DNA of 64,000 bases. It comes from an uncultured Candidatus Saccharibacteria bacterium. Lineage in GTDB: Bacteria; Patescibacteriota; Minisyncoccia; SW-4-49-11. Position 1 is the stretch's first letter. Each line of letters opens with the position of its first letter. The notes beneath the pieces were generated by a model that made no database searches, was not told where the DNA came from, and saw only the letters and a program-made list of their open reading frames with translations. Positions 15,714-60,804 of the stretch are shown here, piece after piece. The stretch lies in contig CAZWIJ010000003.1 of assembly GCA_964633865.1 (NCBI GenBank), forward strand, positions 40,656 through 104,655, written 5' to 3'. Made by a program: the position numbers and the translations under genes.

Positions 15714-17846
15714 TTATTGAGTAAATTTTAATATAAATATATCATATGAACCATTTGTACTTAATGAAACTAAATTTCCATTTATATCATTCCCTAAGCT
15801 CATTAGGTTTGATATAAAATAACCAGATATTATTAAATTATCATAATCATCAATCATAACTAAACTTCCAAAATCATTTCCATTTTGTATTAAACTTTTT
15901 TTTGAATATAATAAACCACCATTTAAATTATACTTTGATATATGGAGCTCTTCACTTTCATTATTATTTAAATTGATTGGATTTCCATTTATATCATTCC
16001 CTAAATTTATAGGATTAGAGCTGAAATATCCTGTAACTATTATATTATTGTCATTATCAATAGCGATGTTATTAATATAATCATTATCATTTCCTCCTGC
16101 ACTCCTTGCCCACAATAATTCTCCATCAATGTTATATTTTGATATATAAAAGTCTTGAATTCCATTATTATTTAGATTTATTGGATTTCCATTTATATCA
16201 TTTCCTAAACTAAGTACATTCGATTGAAAACTACCTGCTACTATTATATTGTTATCATTATCAAGTTTCATATCATTCATATAATCAAATCCTCCCCCTC
16301 CTGCACTCTTTGCCCATAATAGTTCTCCATCAATATTATATTTTGATATATATGTATCTCTACTTCCATTATTACTTAAATTTATTGGGTTTCCATTTAT
16401 ATCATTTCCTAAATTTAGTACATTCGATTGGAAACTACCTGCCACTATTATATTGTTACCATTATCACTTGTTATAGAAAAACCATAATCAGCTAAATTA
16501 CCTCCTGCACTCTTTGCCCATAATAATTCCCCATCAATATTATATTTTGATATAAAAAAGTCTTGACTACCATTATTATTTAAATTTATTGGGTTTCCAT
16601 TTATATCATTTCCTAAACTCATAGGATTAGAGCTGAAATATCCTGTAACTATTATATTATTGTCATTATCACTCGTTATAGAAATACCGTATTCACCTAA
16701 AGTTTCTCCACTACTCTTTGCCCATAATAATTCTCCATCAATATTATATTTTGATATATAAAAGTCTTGACTTCCATTATTATTTAGATTTATTGGATTT
16801 CCATTTATATCACTTCCTAAATTCATTATATTTGAATCAAAATATCCTGTAATTATTATATTATCGTTATTATCACTCGTCACATGACTAACATTATCAA
16901 ATCCACTTCCTCCTGCACTCTTTGCCCATAATAATTCTCCATCAGTGTTATATTTTGATAGATATATATCTCTGTTACCATTATTATTTAAATTGATTGG
17001 ATTTCCATTTATATCACTTCCTAAATTCATTACATTTGAGTCAAAATATCCTGTAATTATTATATTATCATTATTATCACTCGTCACATGACTAACATTA
17101 TCAAATCCACTTCCTCCTGCACTCTTTGCCCAAAGAGTAGTTAGTGAAGGAATATTAACTTGAGTTATACTTCCACTTGCTAGTACATTTTCACCTATCA
17201 CTATTTTTGATACTATCTCTTTTCCTGCATCTGCTGTTTGCACCACATAACTTATCCCTGTTCCTACTTGAGTCTCTATTCCAGCATCCACTGTATACCA
17301 AATTAGACTTTCTTCTGATATATTTAGTCCTGTTGGGAGTGTTACTGTCAATGTCTGTCCTACTTCATTTGTTCCATTTATTACTAAACTTAGTTCTATT
17401 GGATTAATTATTATAAATTCTCCTAATACAGCTTTATCTGCAAATACACTTATTTTATTATTTACATTATTTATACCCGCTTTATATCCTCCTCCTTTTG
17501 GATCTCTTGGTATTTCTGCTATATATGTTGGAACTAACTCTCTCAGATCTATCTTTCCTGTACAATCTGTTGAATCTCCCTCTATCTCTTTTCCTGTATC
17601 ACATATTTCACCGTATAATCCTGTTGCATCATCTATTATATCTTTTGGATATCTTCCATTCGATATATAATATTGATCTAATGCTTTTTGTACTGTATTT
17701 ATTCCTCCCCATCTACTTGCATTCTCTGCTTTTCCTATCTGTCTTAATGGATTTATAGCGACAATAACTATACTTGCTAATATTCCTATTGATGCTATTA
17801 CCAACAATATCTCTAATAATGTAAATCCTTTCTTTTTATTATTCAT
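15714..17846 (-). CDS. type IV pilin-like (prepilin N-terminal cleavage/methylation domain) surface protein with a 7-bladed SBBP-type beta-propeller repeat array
   Basis: The N-terminus KKG|FTLLEILLVIASIGILASIVI is a class III signal with Glu at +5. From about aa 238 there are seven ~68-aa repeats (LWAKSAGG...NIIITGYF...GNDINGNPINLNNNG...ISKYN.DGEL). Confidence 0.7.
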   Translation of the reverse strand: MNNKKKGFTLLEILLVIASIGILASIVIVAINPLRQIGKAENASRWGGINTVQKALDQYYISNGRYPKDIIDDATGLYGEICDTGKEIEGDSTDCTGKIDLRELVPTYIAEIPRDPKGGGYKAGINNVNNKISVFADKAVLGEFIIINPIELSLVINGTNEVGQTLTVTLPTGLNISEESLIWYTVDAGIETQVGTGISYVVQTADAGKEIVSKIVIGENVLASGSITQVNIPSLTTLWAKSAGGSGFDNVSHVTSDNNDNIIITGYFDSNVMNLGSDINGNPINLNNNGNRDIYLSKYNTDGELLWAKSAGGSGFDNVSHVTSDNNDNIIITGYFDSNIMNLGSDINGNPINLNNNGSQDFYISKYNIDGELLWAKSSGETLGEYGISITSDNDNNIIVTGYFSSNPMSLGNDINGNPINLNNNGSQDFFISKYNIDGELLWAKSAGGNLADYGFSITSDNGNNIIVAGSFQSNVLNLGNDINGNPINLSNNGSRDTYISKYNIDGELLWAKSAGGGGFDYMNDMKLDNDNNIIVAGSFQSNVLSLGNDINGNPINLNNNGIQDFYISKYNIDGELLWARSAGGNDNDYINNIAIDNDNNIIVTGYFSSNPINLGNDINGNPINLNNNESEELHISKYNLNGGLLYSKKSLIQNGNDFGSLVMIDDYDNLIISGYFISNLMSLGNDINGNLVSLSTNGSYDIFILKFTQ
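15730..17135. repeat. tandem ~204-bp coding repeats (7 copies) inside the pilin-like gene; the two central copies are nearly identical
   Basis: Stretches around 16861-16960 and 17065-17164 are almost identical (tatcactcgtcacatgactaacattatcaaatccacttcctcctgcactctttgcccat...). The period matches the 68-aa protein repeat. Confidence 0.7.
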
Positions 17847-38847: not shown

Positions 38848-38999
38848 ACTAAGTAATTTATATTATAAAGCTATACATTTTTTGTGTATAGCTTTTAAAT
38901 TTATACTTGATTTTTATTGAAAATAAAGGTATTATTATATACAAGCCGTATTTTAATATTATAATACTACGGACAATATTATTAACTAACCCTTTAAAA

Positions 39000-40079
39000 A
39001 TGAGTAACTCAAAAGAAGTCCGATCCAAAATGGATATTTTATTAGCAGAAAACCCTATAAATATACCAAATATTGGAGAAGATGTTGTTGGAAAAGTTTT
39101 AGAAATTGGAACAAATGCACTATATATAGATTTAGGAATAGGAACTGGTATAGTATTAGGAGAAGAATTAAATGATGGATTTGGGACTTTCAAACAATTG
39201 AAAATTGGTGATGAAGTAACCGCCACAGTTATGAATCTAAACACTGATGATGGATATATAGAATTATCTATGAAATCTGCATCTGAAGATAAAGTTTGGG
39301 ATGACCTATATGAGAAAAAAGAAGCAAATGAGCCTGTTGATGTAAAAATTCTTGATGCAAACAAAGGTGGACTTTTAGTACAAATAAATGGAATTGTTGG
39401 ATTTTTACCAGTTTCTCAATTAGCATATGATCATTATCCTAGAGTAGATGGTGGAGATAAAAATAAAATTTTATCTAGATTAAATGATTATATAAACACT
39501 ACTTTTAGAGTATCTATTATAACTGTTGATAGAGATGAGAATAAATTGATTGTTTCTGAAAAAATAGCTAGAAAATCTGAAGAGTTAAATCTAATTAATT
39601 CTTATGAAAAAGGTGATATAATCGAAGGTGAAATTACTGGTGTTGTAAATTTTGGTATTTTCTTAAAATTTGGAACTCCTGAGCAAAAAATCGAAGGTCT
39701 TGTGCATATTTCAGAACTTTCTTGGCAATTAGTTGAAGATCCAAAAACAATGTTTAAAGAAGGTGAAAAAATTAAAGCTAAAGTTATCGATGTGTCTAAT
39801 GGAAAAGTTTCTCTTTCCGTAAAAGCTTTATTGGAAGATCCATGGCAAACTGTTGCTGTTAATTTCAAACCTAATCAAGAAATAAAAGGTACTATATTAA
39901 AGATGAATCACTTTGGTATATTTGTTCAACTAGAAGGAAATATACGAGGGTTAGTACATAGCTCTGAAATTGAAAAGGAGAAAGCAAAATATAATGGTCT
40001 CAAAGAAGGTATTGTTCAAATATTCAAAATTATATCTGTAGATCCAGCTGAACATAGAGTTAGCTTGTGTTTAGCATAA
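39000..40079 (+). CDS. rpsA: 30S ribosomal protein S1 (short form, four S1 domains)
   Basis: Repeated S1 OB-fold motifs (GEDVVGKVLEIGTNALYIDLG..., GDIIEGEITGVVNFGIFLKFG...EGLVHISELSW, IKGTILKMNHFGIFVQLEGNIRGLVHSSEI). Start placed at the ATG at 39000 (MSNSKEV...); the longer track ORF from 38907 adds a hydrophobic non-S1 leader. Confidence 0.75.
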   Translation: MSNSKEVRSKMDILLAENPINIPNIGEDVVGKVLEIGTNALYIDLGIGTGIVLGEELNDGFGTFKQLKIGDEVTATVMNLNTDDGYIELSMKSASEDKVWDDLYEKKEANEPVDVKILDANKGGLLVQINGIVGFLPVSQLAYDHYPRVDGGDKNKILSRLNDYINTTFRVSIITVDRDENKLIVSEKIARKSEELNLINSYEKGDIIEGEITGVVNFGIFLKFGTPEQKIEGLVHISELSWQLVEDPKTMFKEGEKIKAKVIDVSNGKVSLSVKALLEDPWQTVAVNFKPNQEIKGTILKMNHFGIFVQLEGNIRGLVHSSEIEKEKAKYNGLKEGIVQIFKIISVDPAEHRVSLCLA

Positions 40080-40106: not shown

Positions 40107-41981
40107 ATGAAACAATTTAGTAAAAACATATTGTCTGGTGTATTATCCCTATTAGCTATAATAGTAGTATTTAGTTTTATATCATCACAATCAAAACCAA
40201 CAAGTGATACTATATCATTGTCTCAAGTTGTGACAGAAATTCAGAATGATCAAGTAAAAAACATTGTAGTAAAAGATAATCAAGTTAATATTACTCTAAA
40301 AGATGATTCTGTGAAAACAGCTGAGAAAGAACCTTCTGGAACTTTCTTGGAATCATTACAGAATTATGGTGTATCATCAGAAAAAATTCAAGCACTTGAT
40401 ATCAAAGTAACCAATAATGATGGTTCAAAATTAGCTCTCAATATATTTTTGAGTTTATTTGTTCCTATATTATTAATAGGATTACTACTATGGTTCTCTA
40501 TTAGACAAGCTCAAAAAGGAAGTGCTCAAGCTATGAGCTTTGGAAAGTCTATGGCTAGAATGGTATTACCATCTAAAGACAAGAAAAAAAGACTTACTTT
40601 TAAAGATGTTGCTGGGCTAAAAGAAGCAAAAGAAGAATTATATGAAATTGTTGAATTTCTAAAAAATCCTAAAAAATATACTGATATTGGAGCAAAAATT
40701 CCTAAAGGAATATTATTAGTTGGTCCTCCTGGAACAGGTAAAACTCTTCTTGCAAGAGCTGTAGCTAGTGAAGCTGAGGTTCCTTTTTTCTACACATCTG
40801 GATCAGAATTTGTCGAGATGTTTGTTGGAGTTGGAGCAAGTAGAATTAGAGATTTATTCAAAACTGCTGAGAAAAACTCGCCTGCTCTTATTTTTATAGA
40901 TGAATTAGATGCTGTTGGTAGATCTAGAGGTTCTGGAGTTGGTGGAGGTAATGACGAAAGAGAGCAAACCCTTAATCAGATTTTAGTTGAAATGGATGGA
41001 TTTGAACCAAATAAAGGTCTGATTGTACTAGCAGCAACTAATAGACAAGATGTATTAGATCAGGCTTTATTAAGACCTGGTAGATTTGATAGAAAAGTTA
41101 CTCTTGATTTACCAGATATTAGTGAAAGAGAGCAAATATTAGCTGTTCATTCCAAAACTAAACCTCTGAAAAAAGATGTTAGCCTAAGAAAAATCGCTGA
41201 GAGAACTCCTGGATTTTCAGGAGCAGATCTTAATAATCTTCTAAATGAAGCAGCTATATTCTCAGCTAAAAAAGATGAGAAAGATATTTCTGAATTAAAC
41301 ATTTTAGAATCTATTGATAAAGTTCTTATGGGACCAGAAAGAAGAAGTCGTATAATAACTGAAAAAGAGAAGAAGATTGTAGCATATCATGAAGCTGGGC
41401 ATGCTGTTTGTGCTTACTTTATGGAACATTCTGATCCTGTTCAGAAAGTCACCATTATAGCTAGAGGTCAAGCTGGTGGATATACTCTAAAATTACCAAC
41501 TGAAGATAGAAGACTTCACACAAAATCTGAGTTTGAAGCTGATATAGTAGTTGCATTAGGAGGATATGTTGCTGAAGAAATGATTTTTGGAGAAGTAACT
41601 ACTGGGGCTTCTAATGATATCCAAAAATTAACTCAAATTGCTGAGAACTATGTCAGATACTATGGTATGAGTCCATTAGGTCCAATTCACTATGCTGACT
41701 ATCCAAACAATAGAACAGGAGAAATACCAACTTTAAGCCAAAAAACTCTTGAAGAAGTTGACAAAGAAGTAAAAGGATTAATTTCACAAGCTTATACAAC
41801 TTGTAAAGATGTATTAAGTAGACATAGTGAAGAACTAGAAAGATTAGCTCTTGAACTAATAGAGAAAGAGACAATTGAAAGACCTTTATTCGAATCTATT
41901 ATGAAAAATGAAGTTAAACTTTCAGAAAAAGAAGATGATCTCAACACTAAAAAAACTAAGTCTACTATCAAAAAAGATTAA
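40107..41981 (+). CDS. ftsH: ATP-dependent zinc metalloprotease FtsH
   Basis: N-terminal TM, AAA module (GPPGTGKTLLA, IIFIDELDA, SRF region) and HEAGHA zinc-binding motif. 624 aa. Confidence 0.9.
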   Translation: MKQFSKNILSGVLSLLAIIVVFSFISSQSKPTSDTISLSQVVTEIQNDQVKNIVVKDNQVNITLKDDSVKTAEKEPSGTFLESLQNYGVSSEKIQALDIKVTNNDGSKLALNIFLSLFVPILLIGLLLWFSIRQAQKGSAQAMSFGKSMARMVLPSKDKKKRLTFKDVAGLKEAKEELYEIVEFLKNPKKYTDIGAKIPKGILLVGPPGTGKTLLARAVASEAEVPFFYTSGSEFVEMFVGVGASRIRDLFKTAEKNSPALIFIDELDAVGRSRGSGVGGGNDEREQTLNQILVEMDGFEPNKGLIVLAATNRQDVLDQALLRPGRFDRKVTLDLPDISEREQILAVHSKTKPLKKDVSLRKIAERTPGFSGADLNNLLNEAAIFSAKKDEKDISELNILESIDKVLMGPERRSRIITEKEKKIVAYHEAGHAVCAYFMEHSDPVQKVTIIARGQAGGYTLKLPTEDRRLHTKSEFEADIVVALGGYVAEEMIFGEVTTGASNDIQKLTQIAENYVRYYGMSPLGPIHYADYPNNRTGEIPTLSQKTLEEVDKEVKGLISQAYTTCKDVLSRHSEELERLALELIEKETIERPLFESIMKNEVKLSEKEDDLNTKKTKSTIKKD

Positions 41982-42031
41982 AATTTGATATGGACTAAAC
42001 GAACACTTAATGGTATAATATTAAGTGTTAA

Positions 42032-42105
42032 GGATGTGTAGCTCAGCTGGTTAGAGCGGGCGTCTTATAAGCGCCAGGTCGGTGGTTCAAGTCCACCCAT
42101 ATCCA
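42032..42105 (+). tRNA. tRNA-Ile with anticodon UAU (tRNA-Ile-GAU-like backbone with G34 replaced by T)
   Basis: GGATGTG-TA-GCTC-AGCTGGTTA-GAGC-G-GGCGT-CTTATAA-GCGCC-AGGTC-GGTGG-TTCAAGT-CCACC-CATATCC-A. The body is nearly identical to bacterial tRNA-Ile(GAU), but the anticodon loop reads CTTATAA. No encoded CCA. Confidence 0.75.
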
Positions 42106-42212
42106 CATTTAATTTTAAATAAAGCAAATCATATATTGAACATGTAACAGGTTATTGATGATATAGAATAAAAACAAATAAAACAATATAAAAAGCCATT
42201 TTAAATTTAAAA

Positions 42213-42262: not shown

Positions 42263-42291
42263 AAATAGAATTTTTTAAAAAAATTCTATTT
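42263..42291. repeat. perfect 29-bp palindrome AAATAGAATTTTTT-A-AAAAAATTCTATTT overlapping the stop codon of the LRR gene
   Basis: Exact self-complementarity seen directly. Either a symmetric bidirectional terminator or a dimeric protein-binding site. Confidence 0.5.
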
Positions 42292-44539
42292 AACTTCTAA
42301 TTTCATCTGAAAGATTTAAATTATTTACTTCTTCTTCAATGTTTTTATTAAGATCAATATAAACACCTATTAAGCAATTTTCTAACAACTTATCTAAATT
42401 TTTTGCTATTTTGAGTCCCCTTAACTTTAAATGTCTTCCTATTTCTTTTGGTAATTTTAGATTCTCTATTGTCTCTAATTTATTTAAATTAAGACTTCCT
42501 CCTATCTTCTCTGGTAATTTGAGATTATCGGCTGTCTTTAATGCATTCAAACCAAGACTTCCTCCTATCTTCTCTGGCAATTTGAGATTATCGGCTGTCT
42601 TTAGTACATTCAAACCAAGGTTTCCTACTATTTCCTTTGGTAATTCTAAATTATCAGCTGTCTTTAATCCATTTAAATTAAGATTTCCTATTATCTTCTC
42701 TGGTAATTTGAGATTATCGGTTGTCTTTAACCTATCTAAATTAAGATTTCCTACTATTTCCTTTGGTAATTCTAAATTCTCGACTGTTTCTAATCTATCT
42801 AAATAAAGATATCCTCCTATTTCCTTTGGTAATTCTAAATTATTGATTCTTTCTAATCCACTCAAATCAAGATATCCTCCTATTTTCTCTGGTAATTTTA
42901 AATCATCAGCTTTTTCTAATCCACTTAAATTAAGATGTCCTCCTATTTTCTCTGGTAATTCTAAATAATAGGCTTCATATAATCCACTTAAATCAAGACC
43001 TCCTCCTATTTTCTCTGGTAATTCTAAATAATAGGCTTCATATAATCCACTTAAATTAAGATTTCCTACTATTTCCTTTGGTAATTCTAAATTATCGGCT
43101 GTCTTTAATCCATCTAAATTAAGATTTCCTCTTATTATATCTGGTAGTTTTAAATTTTCTGCTGTTTTTAGATAACCTAAATCAATATCTCCGTAATGAT
43201 AACCTATATCTCCAGATAAAGCTTCTTCTTGTGTTAAACTTATTTTATCTGCTGTTGTATCTAATATAAATGCTAAATCTTCTTTTACATCTCTTCCTCT
43301 CTTTACCTTTTCTAATCTTGGATCTTGATTATATCCAAAACTTATAAATTCCTCTTCTAATTCCCAACTCAATATTAAATCTTCTTTATTTAGTTCTTCT
43401 TTATTCTCTATTTTATCTAATATTTCTGTTAATCTCTTTGCATTCTCATCTTTCTTTTTGTATTCTTCTGCTTTATCTCCAAATTCTTCTAGCTTTTCAC
43501 TCAATATATTTGTTCCTGCTATATATTCATCCATATTTTGTTCTTCTGCTATTCCTCTTATCTCTACTATTTCTTCTCCTTCCATCCTGATTGTGATTCT
43601 TGGATTTTCTATTTGTCCATTCTTGTTTTTGCTATAATATATATAAAAGTCTCCCATTTCTAAATAGCTTTCTGCTGTTGATTCACTTGCTATACACCAT
43701 CCTGTATTTCTTCCTTCTAATGTCTTTGTTACTTCTTTTGGTTCACTTCCTTTCTCATATCTTATCCATTCTCCTTCTGTTATTGATAATTCTGTATTGC
43801 CTTCTACTTCTGCATTTTTTAAGGCTTTTGCATATAATTCTCCAAAGTCTGCTTTCTTGATTAATTTTTCCAATTCTTCATCTTCTCCTACTTCTATCTT
43901 ATTTTCTTCTACATATTTTATTATTCCATCTACTGCATAGGCTAATGCTTCTCTATTTAATTCTGGGTATGGGGCTACTGTTCCTTTACTTCTTTTTCCA
44001 AATTTAAATGTTTCTTTATCATATTTAGATAATTTTAACATTCCTTGGAACATCCAATACTTTGCCCACATTGGATAATGGCTTGTATCACTGCTTATTA
44101 GATAATCTGCCCATTTACCTAAACTTTTTTCTTGATCTTTGGCTATAGTTCCTATTGATCCTTCTTTCATTCCTGACCTTTCTATATCTTTTTCTGTATA
44201 TTCTCTCTCAAAAAACTCTCCTAGCTCTCCTCCTTGTCCTCTCTCTATTGCTTGTTTTCTTTGCACATTAAAGTAACTTAATGGTATTTCTTCTGCTTCC
44301 ATTACATGATCTTTGTATAGATATCTTCTCTTTACTCTTTCTTTTAACTCTTCATTCTCTTCCATTCTAGCATTATCTCTTTCTAATTTCCTTAGCCAAT
44401 TTCCTAGCTTTTCTACTGGTTTTTGACTTACTTTCTCTCCTCTTTCTTTTGTTCTCTTAGTTTCTGCTTCTACTTCTTCACTTATATGTAAGTTTCCGAA
44501 TTTTTTCTTTATAAATTCTGCTCCTTTCTTCTCTTCCAT
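42290..44539 (-). CDS. leucine-rich repeat (LRR) protein: ~450-aa charged N-terminal region of unknown function plus ~13 tandem 22-aa LRRs
   Basis: C-terminal repeats with consensus L-N-L-x-G-L-K-T-A-D-N-L-K-L-P-E-K-I-G-G-x (22 aa), encoded by 66-bp tandem DNA repeats. The coding strand is extremely purine-rich (E/K-rich protein). No recognisable domain in the N-terminal part. Confidence 0.7.
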   Translation of the reverse strand: MEEKKGAEFIKKKFGNLHISEEVEAETKRTKERGEKVSQKPVEKLGNWLRKLERDNARMEENEELKERVKRRYLYKDHVMEAEEIPLSYFNVQRKQAIERGQGGELGEFFEREYTEKDIERSGMKEGSIGTIAKDQEKSLGKWADYLISSDTSHYPMWAKYWMFQGMLKLSKYDKETFKFGKRSKGTVAPYPELNREALAYAVDGIIKYVEENKIEVGEDEELEKLIKKADFGELYAKALKNAEVEGNTELSITEGEWIRYEKGSEPKEVTKTLEGRNTGWCIASESTAESYLEMGDFYIYYSKNKNGQIENPRITIRMEGEEIVEIRGIAEEQNMDEYIAGTNILSEKLEEFGDKAEEYKKKDENAKRLTEILDKIENKEELNKEDLILSWELEEEFISFGYNQDPRLEKVKRGRDVKEDLAFILDTTADKISLTQEEALSGDIGYHYGDIDLGYLKTAENLKLPDIIRGNLNLDGLKTADNLELPKEIVGNLNLSGLYEAYYLELPEKIGGGLDLSGLYEAYYLELPEKIGGHLNLSGLEKADDLKLPEKIGGYLDLSGLERINNLELPKEIGGYLYLDRLETVENLELPKEIVGNLNLDRLKTTDNLKLPEKIIGNLNLNGLKTADNLELPKEIVGNLGLNVLKTADNLKLPEKIGGSLGLNALKTADNLKLPEKIGGSLNLNKLETIENLKLPKEIGRHLKLRGLKIAKNLDKLLENCLIGVYIDLNKNIEEEVNNLNLSDEIRS
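42400..43200. repeat. tandem 66-bp coding repeats (~12-13 copies) of the LRR gene, including two adjacent near-identical copies around 42950-43080
   Basis: Repeated ...ctctggtaattctaaat...ccacttaaattaagatttcctcctattttctctggtaattc... units are visible directly. The antisense ORF 42411-42806 is a mirror artefact of this array. Confidence 0.75.
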
Positions 44540-58035: not shown

Positions 58036-60804
58036 TTGAACTTATTCAGGTTCAACCCGAATGCTAAAGTTCTAATAATTGTGGGTGTAAGATCTAATCT
58101 TCTTACTCAAAATCTAAAAATTATCAGAAATCAATTTGATAATCAAGGATTAAGATCCGTATCTACGGGTATAATGAAATCCGATACCAATTACACCATT
58201 AATTTAGTGACTTGGCAAGGTTTAAATTCTTTATACAAAAAAGATTTAATACAAGATTATTGGTTTGATCTCGTGGTTGTAGATGAATTTCATAATGCTG
58301 GCACAAATCGCCGATTAGAAATTCTATCAAGCTTGAAAAAGACTAATGTTGTTGGTATGTCCGCAACTCCAGTCAGAGCAGGTGGATTATATTTAAATCC
58401 TGAAGACTATGGATTTAAACTAATTTATCAACACTCTTATGCTGATTGTATTAAAAGAGGTTTACTTACTCCTTTGTTCATTCAGGCTCGAGATACAGGA
58501 ATAACCTTATCTCCAAGAGTGGAAAGTAAGGATGGAGATTTAATCTCATATATTGTCAACAAAGAAGTTGCTGATAGTGGGATTATTTCTAGAATTTCTA
58601 AAGATCTTTTGAAAGAAGATTTACTTTTACAGGGAATAAAAACTCTGGTAATTGTTAATTCAAAAAAAGAAGCTATAGCGGTAAAAGAAATTCTTATTAA
58701 GAAATTTAAGACTGAAGTTTATATTTCTCATTTTTATTCTGAAGAAGAAGATAAAGAAATTTTGAGAAAATATGCTCTTCCAAAAGAGAATATTGAATCT
58801 TTGCAGATTTTAGTTTCTGTAAATCGGCTAATTGAAGGTTATGATAATCCTTTGATTCAAGCAGAAATCTGGATTAGTCCTACTAAGTCTAGTGTTAGAT
58901 TCTGTCAATACTTGGGAAGAGTATCAAGAAAAGCTCCTGGAAAAAATTTTAGTATCTTGATTGAATACCAATATCATATATTGGGTTCATCCTTACCTTA
59001 CAACTATACTAAATTTTTTAGTGAAGAAGAGTTAGAATGGGTAAATAATAATTGGGTCGCTATATGCCCCCAAAATAAATTAGAGAATTTATCTGAATTA
59101 GATGGAATTCTCAATAATTATAAAAGTATTTTCCCTGCCTTCACAAGAAATAGAAGTAAAGGAGATTATCCTCAAAATAAAGATTATTCAGTTATTCCAA
59201 ATACTTGGTATAGTATGGCTGGTATGACTTCTATCTTTGGACAAGGTGCCTCAGTAAAAGAAACTATTACAAATCTGTCTTCTCAATCTGAATTTCAAGA
59301 TAAATTTAAATTTGGTAAAAAAGCAGGACCTGGTAGTGGAATACCAACTATTTATTATTCTCCTGACTTTGTTCACAGATTATTAGAATTAGGTTTAACA
59401 ATTCAGATTCCCAGAGGCTGGTTTGATAAAGAATTTTTGAATGATCACTTTGATATCAAAGATTTAAGTGTGATCAAGGTTATGAATTTACTTTATGCAG
59501 AGTCTACTGAAGATCTTTACCTAAAGATTTTAGATCAAGGTTTGTATTCTAAAAAATTCATCCAAAGAATGCTTAATCTTTTACCAGTTAGTAAAATCAA
59601 GAATTTTTTTACTCAAAGAGAAATTTTTGAAATGGCATTAGAATTTGAGATGATCTCTATCTCGAGAGAATTCCTTGAAAAAGCAATCAATCTTAATCCT
59701 AATTTATGCTTCAAGAAATTTATTAACGGAAAAGAGGTGGATATTTTTCTTCAAGAAATTCTAAGGAAAGTTGAAAATCTTTTATTCAAAGCTAATTATA
59801 ATTTACTTATGATTAGTAATGAAATGATGAATAACCAAGATCTTTATGGAGGTATTTATTTAAGAGAAGAGCCAGAACCTTGGGAATGGACTTGGAAAGA
59901 AAACATTCCTAAATGGACTTGGGAAGATGAATTGGAATTTGATACAGAAATGTATGATTATTTTTATGAAGACATCTATGATCATCATTCTTTCAATCCT
60001 CCTGTCTTTGATTCAAAAGCTAAGTCAAAACCAGATTCAGAATTAGTCATTGCTAAGTCCATTGAGGGTTTTGATATCTTTTATAATGGTTTAGGTAAAT
60101 TAGTTTTTCCAGAATATTTTGAGTCTGGAAATTATGATTTGGACTTAGAAGAAAAACAAGATTTAGAAGAATTTAAGGAAAAAGTTTTAGAATATTTTTG
60201 TAAGCAACATACAGTGAATAATGCTGTTAGTACTTTAATTAAGTTATTACAAAAATATCCTCACTTAAAATCTTTTACTTGTGTTTTGAGTGAAGAAAAT
60301 ATTATTAATTTGAATACAAAATTAGTAGACGAGAATTTCTTAAATATTTCTATCAAGGATATTCCCATTTATAATATTCCTTTAAAATCTTCTTTGTCCG
60401 AAATAATTAATCCCAATATCTATAAAATTTATCATATCATATTATCTTTGGATACTTGGTCTGAATATATTATAGATACTAGTTTTGGTAAGATTTATCC
60501 CAAATGGTTGATTGAAATTATTAATGTAATTTATAAATTAACCATACTTGCTATCAAACATGGTTTTTATGATATTAAGAAAGTTAATAGAATAAGACCT
60601 ATTAAAACATATAAAAGCCACGAAAAAATTTATAAGGAGTTTTTTAATGAAAAAATTTATCAAAAAATTTCTTATACTAATAGCTGGAATACTAGAAAAA
60701 AGGAATGTTATTATGTTGATAGACAAGATGATTTACAAGAATTAATTTATTATATTCCAAATGAATTAATCTTAGGGAATTATATTCTTAAGAAAAAAGA
60801 CTAA
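58036..60804 (+). CDS. SF2 helicase-like protein lacking Walker A (motif I), fused to a ~600-aa C-terminal region of unknown function
   Basis: DEFH box VVVDEFHN (motif II), SAT-like GMSATP (III), helicase-C motifs VSVNRLIEGYDNP (V) and FCQYLGRVSRKA (VI). Only TTG at 58036 is available as a start; an in-frame TGA at 58012 excludes an upstream Walker A. The C-terminal 600 aa are W/Y-rich with no recognisable motif. Confidence 0.55.
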   Translation: MNLFRFNPNAKVLIIVGVRSNLLTQNLKIIRNQFDNQGLRSVSTGIMKSDTNYTINLVTWQGLNSLYKKDLIQDYWFDLVVVDEFHNAGTNRRLEILSSLKKTNVVGMSATPVRAGGLYLNPEDYGFKLIYQHSYADCIKRGLLTPLFIQARDTGITLSPRVESKDGDLISYIVNKEVADSGIISRISKDLLKEDLLLQGIKTLVIVNSKKEAIAVKEILIKKFKTEVYISHFYSEEEDKEILRKYALPKENIESLQILVSVNRLIEGYDNPLIQAEIWISPTKSSVRFCQYLGRVSRKAPGKNFSILIEYQYHILGSSLPYNYTKFFSEEELEWVNNNWVAICPQNKLENLSELDGILNNYKSIFPAFTRNRSKGDYPQNKDYSVIPNTWYSMAGMTSIFGQGASVKETITNLSSQSEFQDKFKFGKKAGPGSGIPTIYYSPDFVHRLLELGLTIQIPRGWFDKEFLNDHFDIKDLSVIKVMNLLYAESTEDLYLKILDQGLYSKKFIQRMLNLLPVSKIKNFFTQREIFEMALEFEMISISREFLEKAINLNPNLCFKKFINGKEVDIFLQEILRKVENLLFKANYNLLMISNEMMNNQDLYGGIYLREEPEPWEWTWKENIPKWTWEDELEFDTEMYDYFYEDIYDHHSFNPPVFDSKAKSKPDSELVIAKSIEGFDIFYNGLGKLVFPEYFESGNYDLDLEEKQDLEEFKEKVLEYFCKQHTVNNAVSTLIKLLQKYPHLKSFTCVLSEENIINLNTKLVDENFLNISIKDIPIYNIPLKSSLSEIINPNIYKIYHIILSLDTWSEYIIDTSFGKIYPKWLIEIINVIYKLTILAIKHGFYDIKKVNRIRPIKTYKSHEKIYKEFFNEKIYQKISYTNSWNTRKKECYYVDRQDDLQELIYYIPNELILGNYILKKKD

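Follow-up and report, generated by a model that had tools for sequence, protein, structure and literature searches.

Immediately downstream of ftsH, this DNA carries a gene for a tRNA-Ile whose UAU anticodon is encoded outright, and comparisons with related sequences indicate that the gene is functional and vertically inherited. We think it likely that AUA codons in the organism are read chiefly, and probably exclusively, by this tRNA-Ile(UAU), charged by an isoleucyl-tRNA synthetase (IleRS) that tolerates U34, so that lysidine is bypassed. The evidence from the ftsH locus, drawn from the window (the whole 64-kb stretch of DNA that was analysed) and from about 200 related loci, leans towards TilS-independence.

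TilS has been reported to be essential, and to be encoded by about 98% of the bacterial genomes that have been annotated. Isoleucine tRNAs with an encoded UAU anticodon, a type named 'Ile3' by tRNAscan-SE, are recorded for 19 species in tRNADB-CE; the tRNAscan-SE 2.0 paper lists 'Ile3(UAU)' in 17 bacterial genomes, all of them Bifidobacterium, Mycoplasma or Neorickettsia, and a 2026 preprint speaks of 'rare cases'. The kind of gene is thus already known, and what appears to be undescribed in the searchable literature is its breadth across the CPR and its linkage to ftsH; a search for lysidine, TilS or tRNA modification together with Patescibacteria, CPR or Saccharibacteria returned no relevant paper from that literature.

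The tRNA gene downstream of ftsH

Five tRNAs were called in the window by ARAGORN, one of which is tRNA-Ile(tat) at 42032-42106 on the forward strand. The Rfam tRNA model RF00005 matches 42032-42105 (+) from end to end with a score of 68.4 bits (gathering score 29, E = 8e-13), and the sequence folds as the 74-nt cloverleaf of an intron-less bacterial tRNA with discriminator A73 and without an encoded CCA. In the cmscan alignment to the Rfam model the 7-nt anticodon loop is CUUAUAA, which places UAU at positions 34-36; the direct reading of the gene gives the same result, with loop CTTATAA and the anticodon TAT at 42066-42068 (+). The claim of a preliminary description, that a tRNA with a UAU anticodon lies just after ftsH, is therefore confirmed by two programs, and covariance-model alignment, which that description had named as a way to overturn the anticodon assignment, upholds it.

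The other refutation envisaged at that stage was that position 34 had been misread or misassembled. At least six independent assemblies, built from different ENA and JGI samples, contain the exact 74-nt tRNA, each time after S1 and ftsH, and its sequence is unchanged in a sister species with 91% identical FtsH (L142), so that such an error is excluded. In three remoter relatives (L222-L224) the orthologous tRNAs are identical to the window tRNA at 69-71 of 74 positions, and the differences are compensatory (28-42 G-C to U-A, 7-66 G-C to A-U, and 5-68 G-U to G-C), the signature of a functional gene. All of these assemblies and orthologues have T at position 34, in the place of the C34 that is the substrate of TilS, and with T at this position of the gene lysidine is neither needed nor possible.

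Compared with the tRNAs of E. coli, the one in the window has 81% identity with tRNA-Ile(GAU) from the rRNA operons and 75% with ileX (CAU). It shares the D-stem and the variable loop with E. coli tRNA-Ile1(GAU), and its D-loop and T-stem are each one base apart; the earlier statement that the backbone is that of tRNA-Ile(GAU) thus stands for the D-arm, variable loop and T-arm, save for these single-base differences. The accompanying idea of a 'single G to T' change from tRNA-Ile(GAU) had to be abandoned, because not only the anticodon but also 7 of the 10 anticodon-stem positions differ from Ile1; a one-base change in a GAU tRNA would not yield the window gene. With E. coli ileX (Ile2, CAU), the anticodon stem GGCGU/GCGCC matches at 7 of 10 positions and differs at 3 of 10. 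With T at position 34 and no Ile1-type anticodon stem the gene does not belong to the tRNA-Ile1(GAU) class, and unlike the canonical member of that class it lies outside an rRNA operon.

Host lineage and the use of AUA

The window has about 27% GC, is 92% coding and uses the standard genetic code, with TAA, TAG and TGA serving as stop codons in 45, 6 and 2 of the 53 ORFs. The nearest named FtsH homologue (74%) is from a 'Candidatus Parcubacteria bacterium', and the next ones, at about 56%, are from Portnoybacteria, Moranibacteria, Jorgensenbacteria and a 'Patescibacteria group' entry. Together with the gene content, which includes a pilin-like protein, PBP1A, Lon, LepA, a dimeric GlyRS, TyrRS and a bifunctional PGI/PMI, these homologues place the organism on the Parcubacteria side of the Patescibacteria (CPR).

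AUA accounts for 890 of the 19474 codons in the 53 ORFs (4.6%, or 45.7 per 1000) and for 43% of the isoleucine codons, and is 2.8 times as frequent as AUG (16.3 per 1000). It occurs in all 53 ORFs, including those for the S1-domain protein, ftsH, lepA, lon, glyS, tyrS, metK and mreB, so that the earlier characterization of the genome as AUA-rich is borne out by measurement in every ORF of the window. The frequency exceeds that of Borrelia, which at 39 per 1000 marked the high end of ten species compared (Muraski 2025). The codon usage of the window is also skewed elsewhere, with AAA at 73.8 and UUA at 56.3 per 1000 and CGN codons making up only 38 of the 19474.

ARAGORN names tRNAs from the anticodon alone, and the meaning of the codon was therefore checked through FtsH. 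In an alignment of 91 FtsH homologues, the 18 AUA positions of ftsH fall in columns with 43% isoleucine, 18% valine, 19% leucine and 3% methionine. The AUU columns are similar (54% isoleucine, 3% methionine), and the AUG columns have 43% methionine; AUA columns therefore resemble AUU and not AUG columns, which shows that AUA means isoleucine. On the side of the tRNA, A73, A35-U36-A37-A38, U12-A23 and C29-G41 can all be read in the gene, and these are reported, in work by Nureki from 1994, to be identity elements for E. coli IleRS. Isoleucine-like AUA columns thus coincide with isoleucine identity elements in the tRNA, and charging with isoleucine is predicted.

The gene neighbourhood in the window

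The tRNA starts 50 nt past the stop codon of ftsH (40107-41981, +; TIGR01241, 775 bits), a gene whose position upstream of the tRNA is conserved. Ahead of ftsH lies a gene for a protein with four S1 domains (38907-40079, +; four Pfam S1 matches), the first gene of the S1-ftsH-tRNA(UAU) module described below; gene callers choose a later start for it, giving a protein of 349 aa. The tRNA may have its own promoter at 41991-42019 (+), where a consensus scan finds the promoter-like sequence TGGACT-17-TATAAT, with 10 of 12 consensus matches and the TG of an extended -10 before it. This site ends 12 nt before the 5' end of the tRNA, and its position alone is suggestive, since such sites are no more numerous in the region than expected from shuffling.

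Several other genes of the window deserve mention. Convergent with the tRNA is a 749-aa ORF (42290-44539, -) that is kept in all assemblies of the organism and has no NCBIfam match, with only a sub-threshold match to LRR. A 710-aa protein (15714-17846, -) combines a type IV pilin/GspG-like N-terminus with SBBP and delta-60 beta-propeller repeats, in the manner of the giant pilins of the CPR. A 922-aa helicase/ResIII-like protein (58036-60804, +) weakly resembles RadD and a restriction enzyme of a Dnd system, and may be a defence gene.

Linkage of tRNA-Ile(UAU) to ftsH

The association with ftsH was examined in 80 metagenome loci (L142-L221) for which the window FtsH was the only query; their FtsH proteins are 49-57% identical to it (one is 91% identical) and about 57% identical to labelled CPR FtsH. 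A tRNA(tat) gene is present in 45 of these 80 loci and makes up 45 of the 66 tRNAs within 8 kb of ftsH, none of which has a CAU anticodon. Where at least 1.5 kb of downstream sequence was available, the tRNA(tat) lies within 1.5 kb past the ftsH stop in 28 of 55 loci. The preliminary description had tied such genes to AT-rich lineages, and the link does not survive this comparison: the FtsH-chosen loci range from 29 to 59% GC, so that this is a lineage-wide trait and not the local adaptation of an AT-rich genome.

In the three remoter relatives introduced above, whose FtsH proteins are 75, 64 and 66% identical to that of the window, whose loci have 35-42% GC and whose contigs reach 1.17 Mb, S1 and ftsH are again followed by tRNA(tat), at a distance of 55-238 nt from ftsH. 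The S1 gene is directly upstream of ftsH in these three and in 14 of 63 metagenome loci. By the evidence of gene order, S1-ftsH-tRNA-Ile(UAU) is a conserved module of Parcubacteria-type Patescibacteria. Across the UAU loci the genes upstream of ftsH are those for S1, EF-P, EamA, TyrRS-related and similar proteins, and never that for TilS.

Gene association over 147 loci brought up FtsH, RecG, DHH, EF-G/LepA, SmpB, an RluA/D-type pseudouridine synthase and LeuRS; by this guilt-by-association approach no universal candidate for a U34-modifying enzyme emerged near tRNA(tat). In 11 of the 147 loci (for example at 1993-3027 in L092) a gene for an S4-domain RluA/RluD-type pseudouridine synthase lies no more than 3 kb from tRNA(tat), an association that is weak and possibly lineage-specific. 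TruD was also considered as a pseudouridylation link, because its gene directly adjoins ftsH-tRNA(UAU) in a single MAG of the Saccharibacteria (L063, 2489-3961, +); it does so in no other locus, and the adjacency is probably coincidental.

Distribution across genomes

When each GTDB species was represented by one genome and scanned for the D-arm followed by CTTATAA, at least 120 loci matched; among the matches listed, 107 are tRNA-Ile(tat) by ARAGORN and the others are mostly intron-containing archaeal genes. By record title, 51 of the matches listed are labelled CPR, with names that include Saccharibacteria, Parcubacteria/Paceibacterota, Dojkabacteria, Woesebacteria, Peri-/Peregrinibacteria, Magasanikbacteria, Kuenenbacteria, Falkowbacteria, Uhrbacteria, Shapirobacteria, Moranibacteria, Buchananbacteria and Microgenomates; the matches listed also include 11 Planctomycetota, 6 Ignavibacteria/Bacteroidota and 15 archaea, almost all of them DPANN. 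These numbers speak against the rarity that had initially been ascribed to the gene, and the scan undercounts the class, because most tRNA(tat) genes at FtsH loci have the loop CUUAUAC. The GC content of the matches listed ranges from 27 to 73% at the locus. In 95 bacterial tRNA(UAU) genes the cloverleaf is retained, with compensatory changes at 15 of 21 pairs and an invariant A73. Among the matches listed ftsH is beside the tRNA in 13 cases, with the tRNA immediately 3' of ftsH in 8.

Outside the CPR, five Planctomycetota MAGs (L019, L023, L026, L123 and L124) have dense arrays of 17-35 tRNA genes in which tRNA-Ile(tat) lies between Lys(ttt) and Lys(ctt). These arrays also contain odd calls (4-base anticodons, Cys(aca), Ala(agc)), and many of their D-arms are unusually short. 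The intron-containing UAU genes are from MAGs of DPANN and other archaea (L015, L017, L040, L044, L050, L051, L085, L108, L118 and L120) and extend the precedent of Nanoarchaeum and Korarchaeum in the tRNAscan-SE 2.0 paper.

TilS, CAU tRNAs and IleRS

Neither tilS, tRNA-Ile2(CAU), tRNA-Ile(GAU) nor ileS was found in the 64-kb window, and the left flank of about 10 kb, which carries dnaK, iPGM and other genes, has no tilS, ileS or tRNA. The ORFs of the window were searched for the PP-loop motif SGGxDS together with 120 genome loci and the 80 FtsH loci, and none has it, a result that is informative for the ftsH neighbourhood only. Two kinds of apparent counterpart were examined and rejected: the 'tRNA(Ile)-lysidine synthase' that Prokka annotated in a MAG resembling Nealsonbacteria corresponds in UniRef to an N-acetyl sugar amidotransferase and not to TilS, and IleRS candidates in related loci, 22-24% identical to an approximate E. 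coli IleRS query, proved to be ValRS.

In Bacillus, tilS lies directly upstream of ftsH. The same arrangement exists within the CPR, since published data place an essential TilS of 294 aa directly upstream of ftsH in the Saccharibacterium Southlakia epibionticum. Within 6 kb this organism has three 'tRNA-Met' (CAU) genes, and its annotation includes a single tRNA-Ile. Set against the UAU loci, this TilS-bearing organism makes the CPR a mosaic of tilS-ftsH and ftsH-tRNA(UAU), and the distribution suggests that the two arrangements are mutually exclusive there. Both solutions to AUA decoding, tilS and tRNA(UAU), cluster with ftsH: tilS and the three CAU tRNAs of Southlakia lie around ftsH, where UAU-bearing relatives have tRNA(UAU), and positional evidence allows that tRNA(UAU) may be orthologous in place to tRNA-Ile2(CAU). 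In the Southlakia region SEML1_0729-0741, two of the three CAU tRNAs (SEML1_0733, 0739 and 0741) flank DivIC beside tilS-ftsH. In UAU-bearing loci labelled Dojkabacteria and Saccharibacteria (L076, 4700-7900, and L038, 3400-6700) ftsH is beside two CAU tRNAs, DivIC or EF-P, and tRNA(tat).

As for the synthetase, U34 would be tolerated by a type-1 IleRS in which Trp905 is replaced by Arg or Lys, or by a eukaryote-like type-2 IleRS. PF19302 (DUF5915) is present in the IleRS of Minisyncoccus archaeiphilus, a cultured member of the Parcubacteria class, and the best match of this enzyme is the IleRS of Treponema. We take DUF5915 to mark the eukaryote-like type-2 IleRS. Enzymes of this type also occur in bacteria that have TilS, such as spirochaetes, and the type-2 IleRS of Minisyncoccus is for this reason only permissive evidence. 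A eukaryote-type IleRS has been tied to the loss of tilS and the presence of tRNA(UAU) in Bifidobacterium and Neorickettsia (Taniguchi 2013, PMC3575796).

AUA decoding and competing explanations

In the mechanism that we propose, tRNA-Ile(UAU) would read AUA through Watson-Crick pairing of U34 with A, and would replace the combination of TilS/lysidine and tRNA-Ile2(CAU), as in Mycoplasma mobile, Bifidobacterium and Neorickettsia. Its charging would fall to an IleRS able to accept U34, which may be a type-2 enzyme of the eukaryote-like kind, as in Minisyncoccus. Misreading of AUG might be avoided in one of two ways: U34 may be unmodified, with discrimination by the ribosome or by kinetics, or it may carry some modification. 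The task, decoding of AUA, is common to this tRNA and to the tRNA-Ile2(CAU)/TilS system. An encoded UAU is likewise shared with the tRNA-Ile(UAU) of archaea and eukaryotes (Nanoarchaeum and Korarchaeum; psi-A-psi in eukaryotes). In those groups, however, introns are frequent and pseudouridylation or other modifications are required.

The bacterial precedents are closer. Mycoplasma mobile resembles the organism of the window in that an encoded UAU reads AUA in an AUA-rich, reduced genome, with A37 after U36 (the context for t6A). For that species an unmodified U34, a Trp-to-Arg change in IleRS and ribosomal rejection of AUG are experimental results (PMC3575796). The M. mobile trait is recent and at the level of a species within the Tenericutes, whereas conservation of the window-type gene spans a deep radiation, in which it is tied to ftsH. 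Bifidobacterium and Neorickettsia, with tRNA(UAU), a eukaryote-like IleRS and no tilS, belong to other phyla than the organism of the window; in them UAU replaces Ile2(CAU), and the same replacement is proposed here by analogy.

The most serious competitor is that tRNA-Ile(UAU) only adds AUA-decoding capacity in a genome that also has TilS and tRNA-Ile2(CAU), a possibility that we regard as rather unlikely. Such redundancy has been proposed for Lactobacillus casei, Cyanothece and Ferrimonas, some bacteria do have both tilS and a tRNA(TAT) gene (Taniguchi 2013, PMC3575796), at least one Patescibacterium, Southlakia, has TilS, and the sequence examined amounts to about 10% of the genome or less. 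Weighing more heavily with us are the roughly 200 related ftsH loci, in which no TilS-like ORF occupies the site that tilS has in Southlakia, the absence of CAU tRNAs from the window and from the 80 FtsH loci, and the cited surveys, in which tRNA(UAU) usually replaces Ile2(CAU).

That the tRNA does not deliver isoleucine at all, either because AUA has been reassigned (for example to methionine, as in many mitochondria) or because the tRNA is charged otherwise, seems to us very improbable. The naming of tRNAs by anticodon alone in ARAGORN would accommodate it, but it conflicts with the Ile/Val/Leu character of the FtsH columns, in which methionine is as scarce at AUA as at AUU, with the E. coli IleRS identity elements named above, and with a backbone closest to that of E. 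coli tRNA-Ile. Less credible still is an artefact, a pseudogene or a recently gained mobile or phage-borne tRNA, which the sequence comparisons have already refuted: the gene is identical in six assemblies, keeps its place after a core gene in relatives down to 50% FtsH identity, evolves by compensation in its stems, scores 68 bits over the full length of the Rfam model, and has no mobile-element genes in its flanks. The one point in favour of such a reading is that older surveys had found UAU tRNAs to be rare overall. Decoding of AUA by tRNA-Ile(UAU) as the main reader is the explanation that we carry forward.

Implications

A broader proposal is that much of the Patescibacteria, namely the Parcubacteria and many lineages of Saccharibacteria, Dojkabacteria, Microgenomates and Peregrinibacteria, decodes AUA by an ftsH-tied tRNA-Ile(UAU) in place of lysidine. 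We advance it tentatively, judging the odds to be somewhat against it. If it is true, TilS-independent decoding of AUA would be the usual state in a radiation holding a sizeable share of bacterial diversity, and tilS-ftsH and ftsH-tRNA(UAU) would be alternative states of one ancestral locus. TilS would then be a poor choice as a universal antibacterial target or as a CPR marker. The stakes are high in the organism of the window, in which AUA is nearly three times as frequent as AUG. Telling AUA from AUG without lysidine would be a solution found widely in nature, and the ribosomes, IleRS and U34 modifications of the CPR would open to tractable study the question of how U34 spares AUG.
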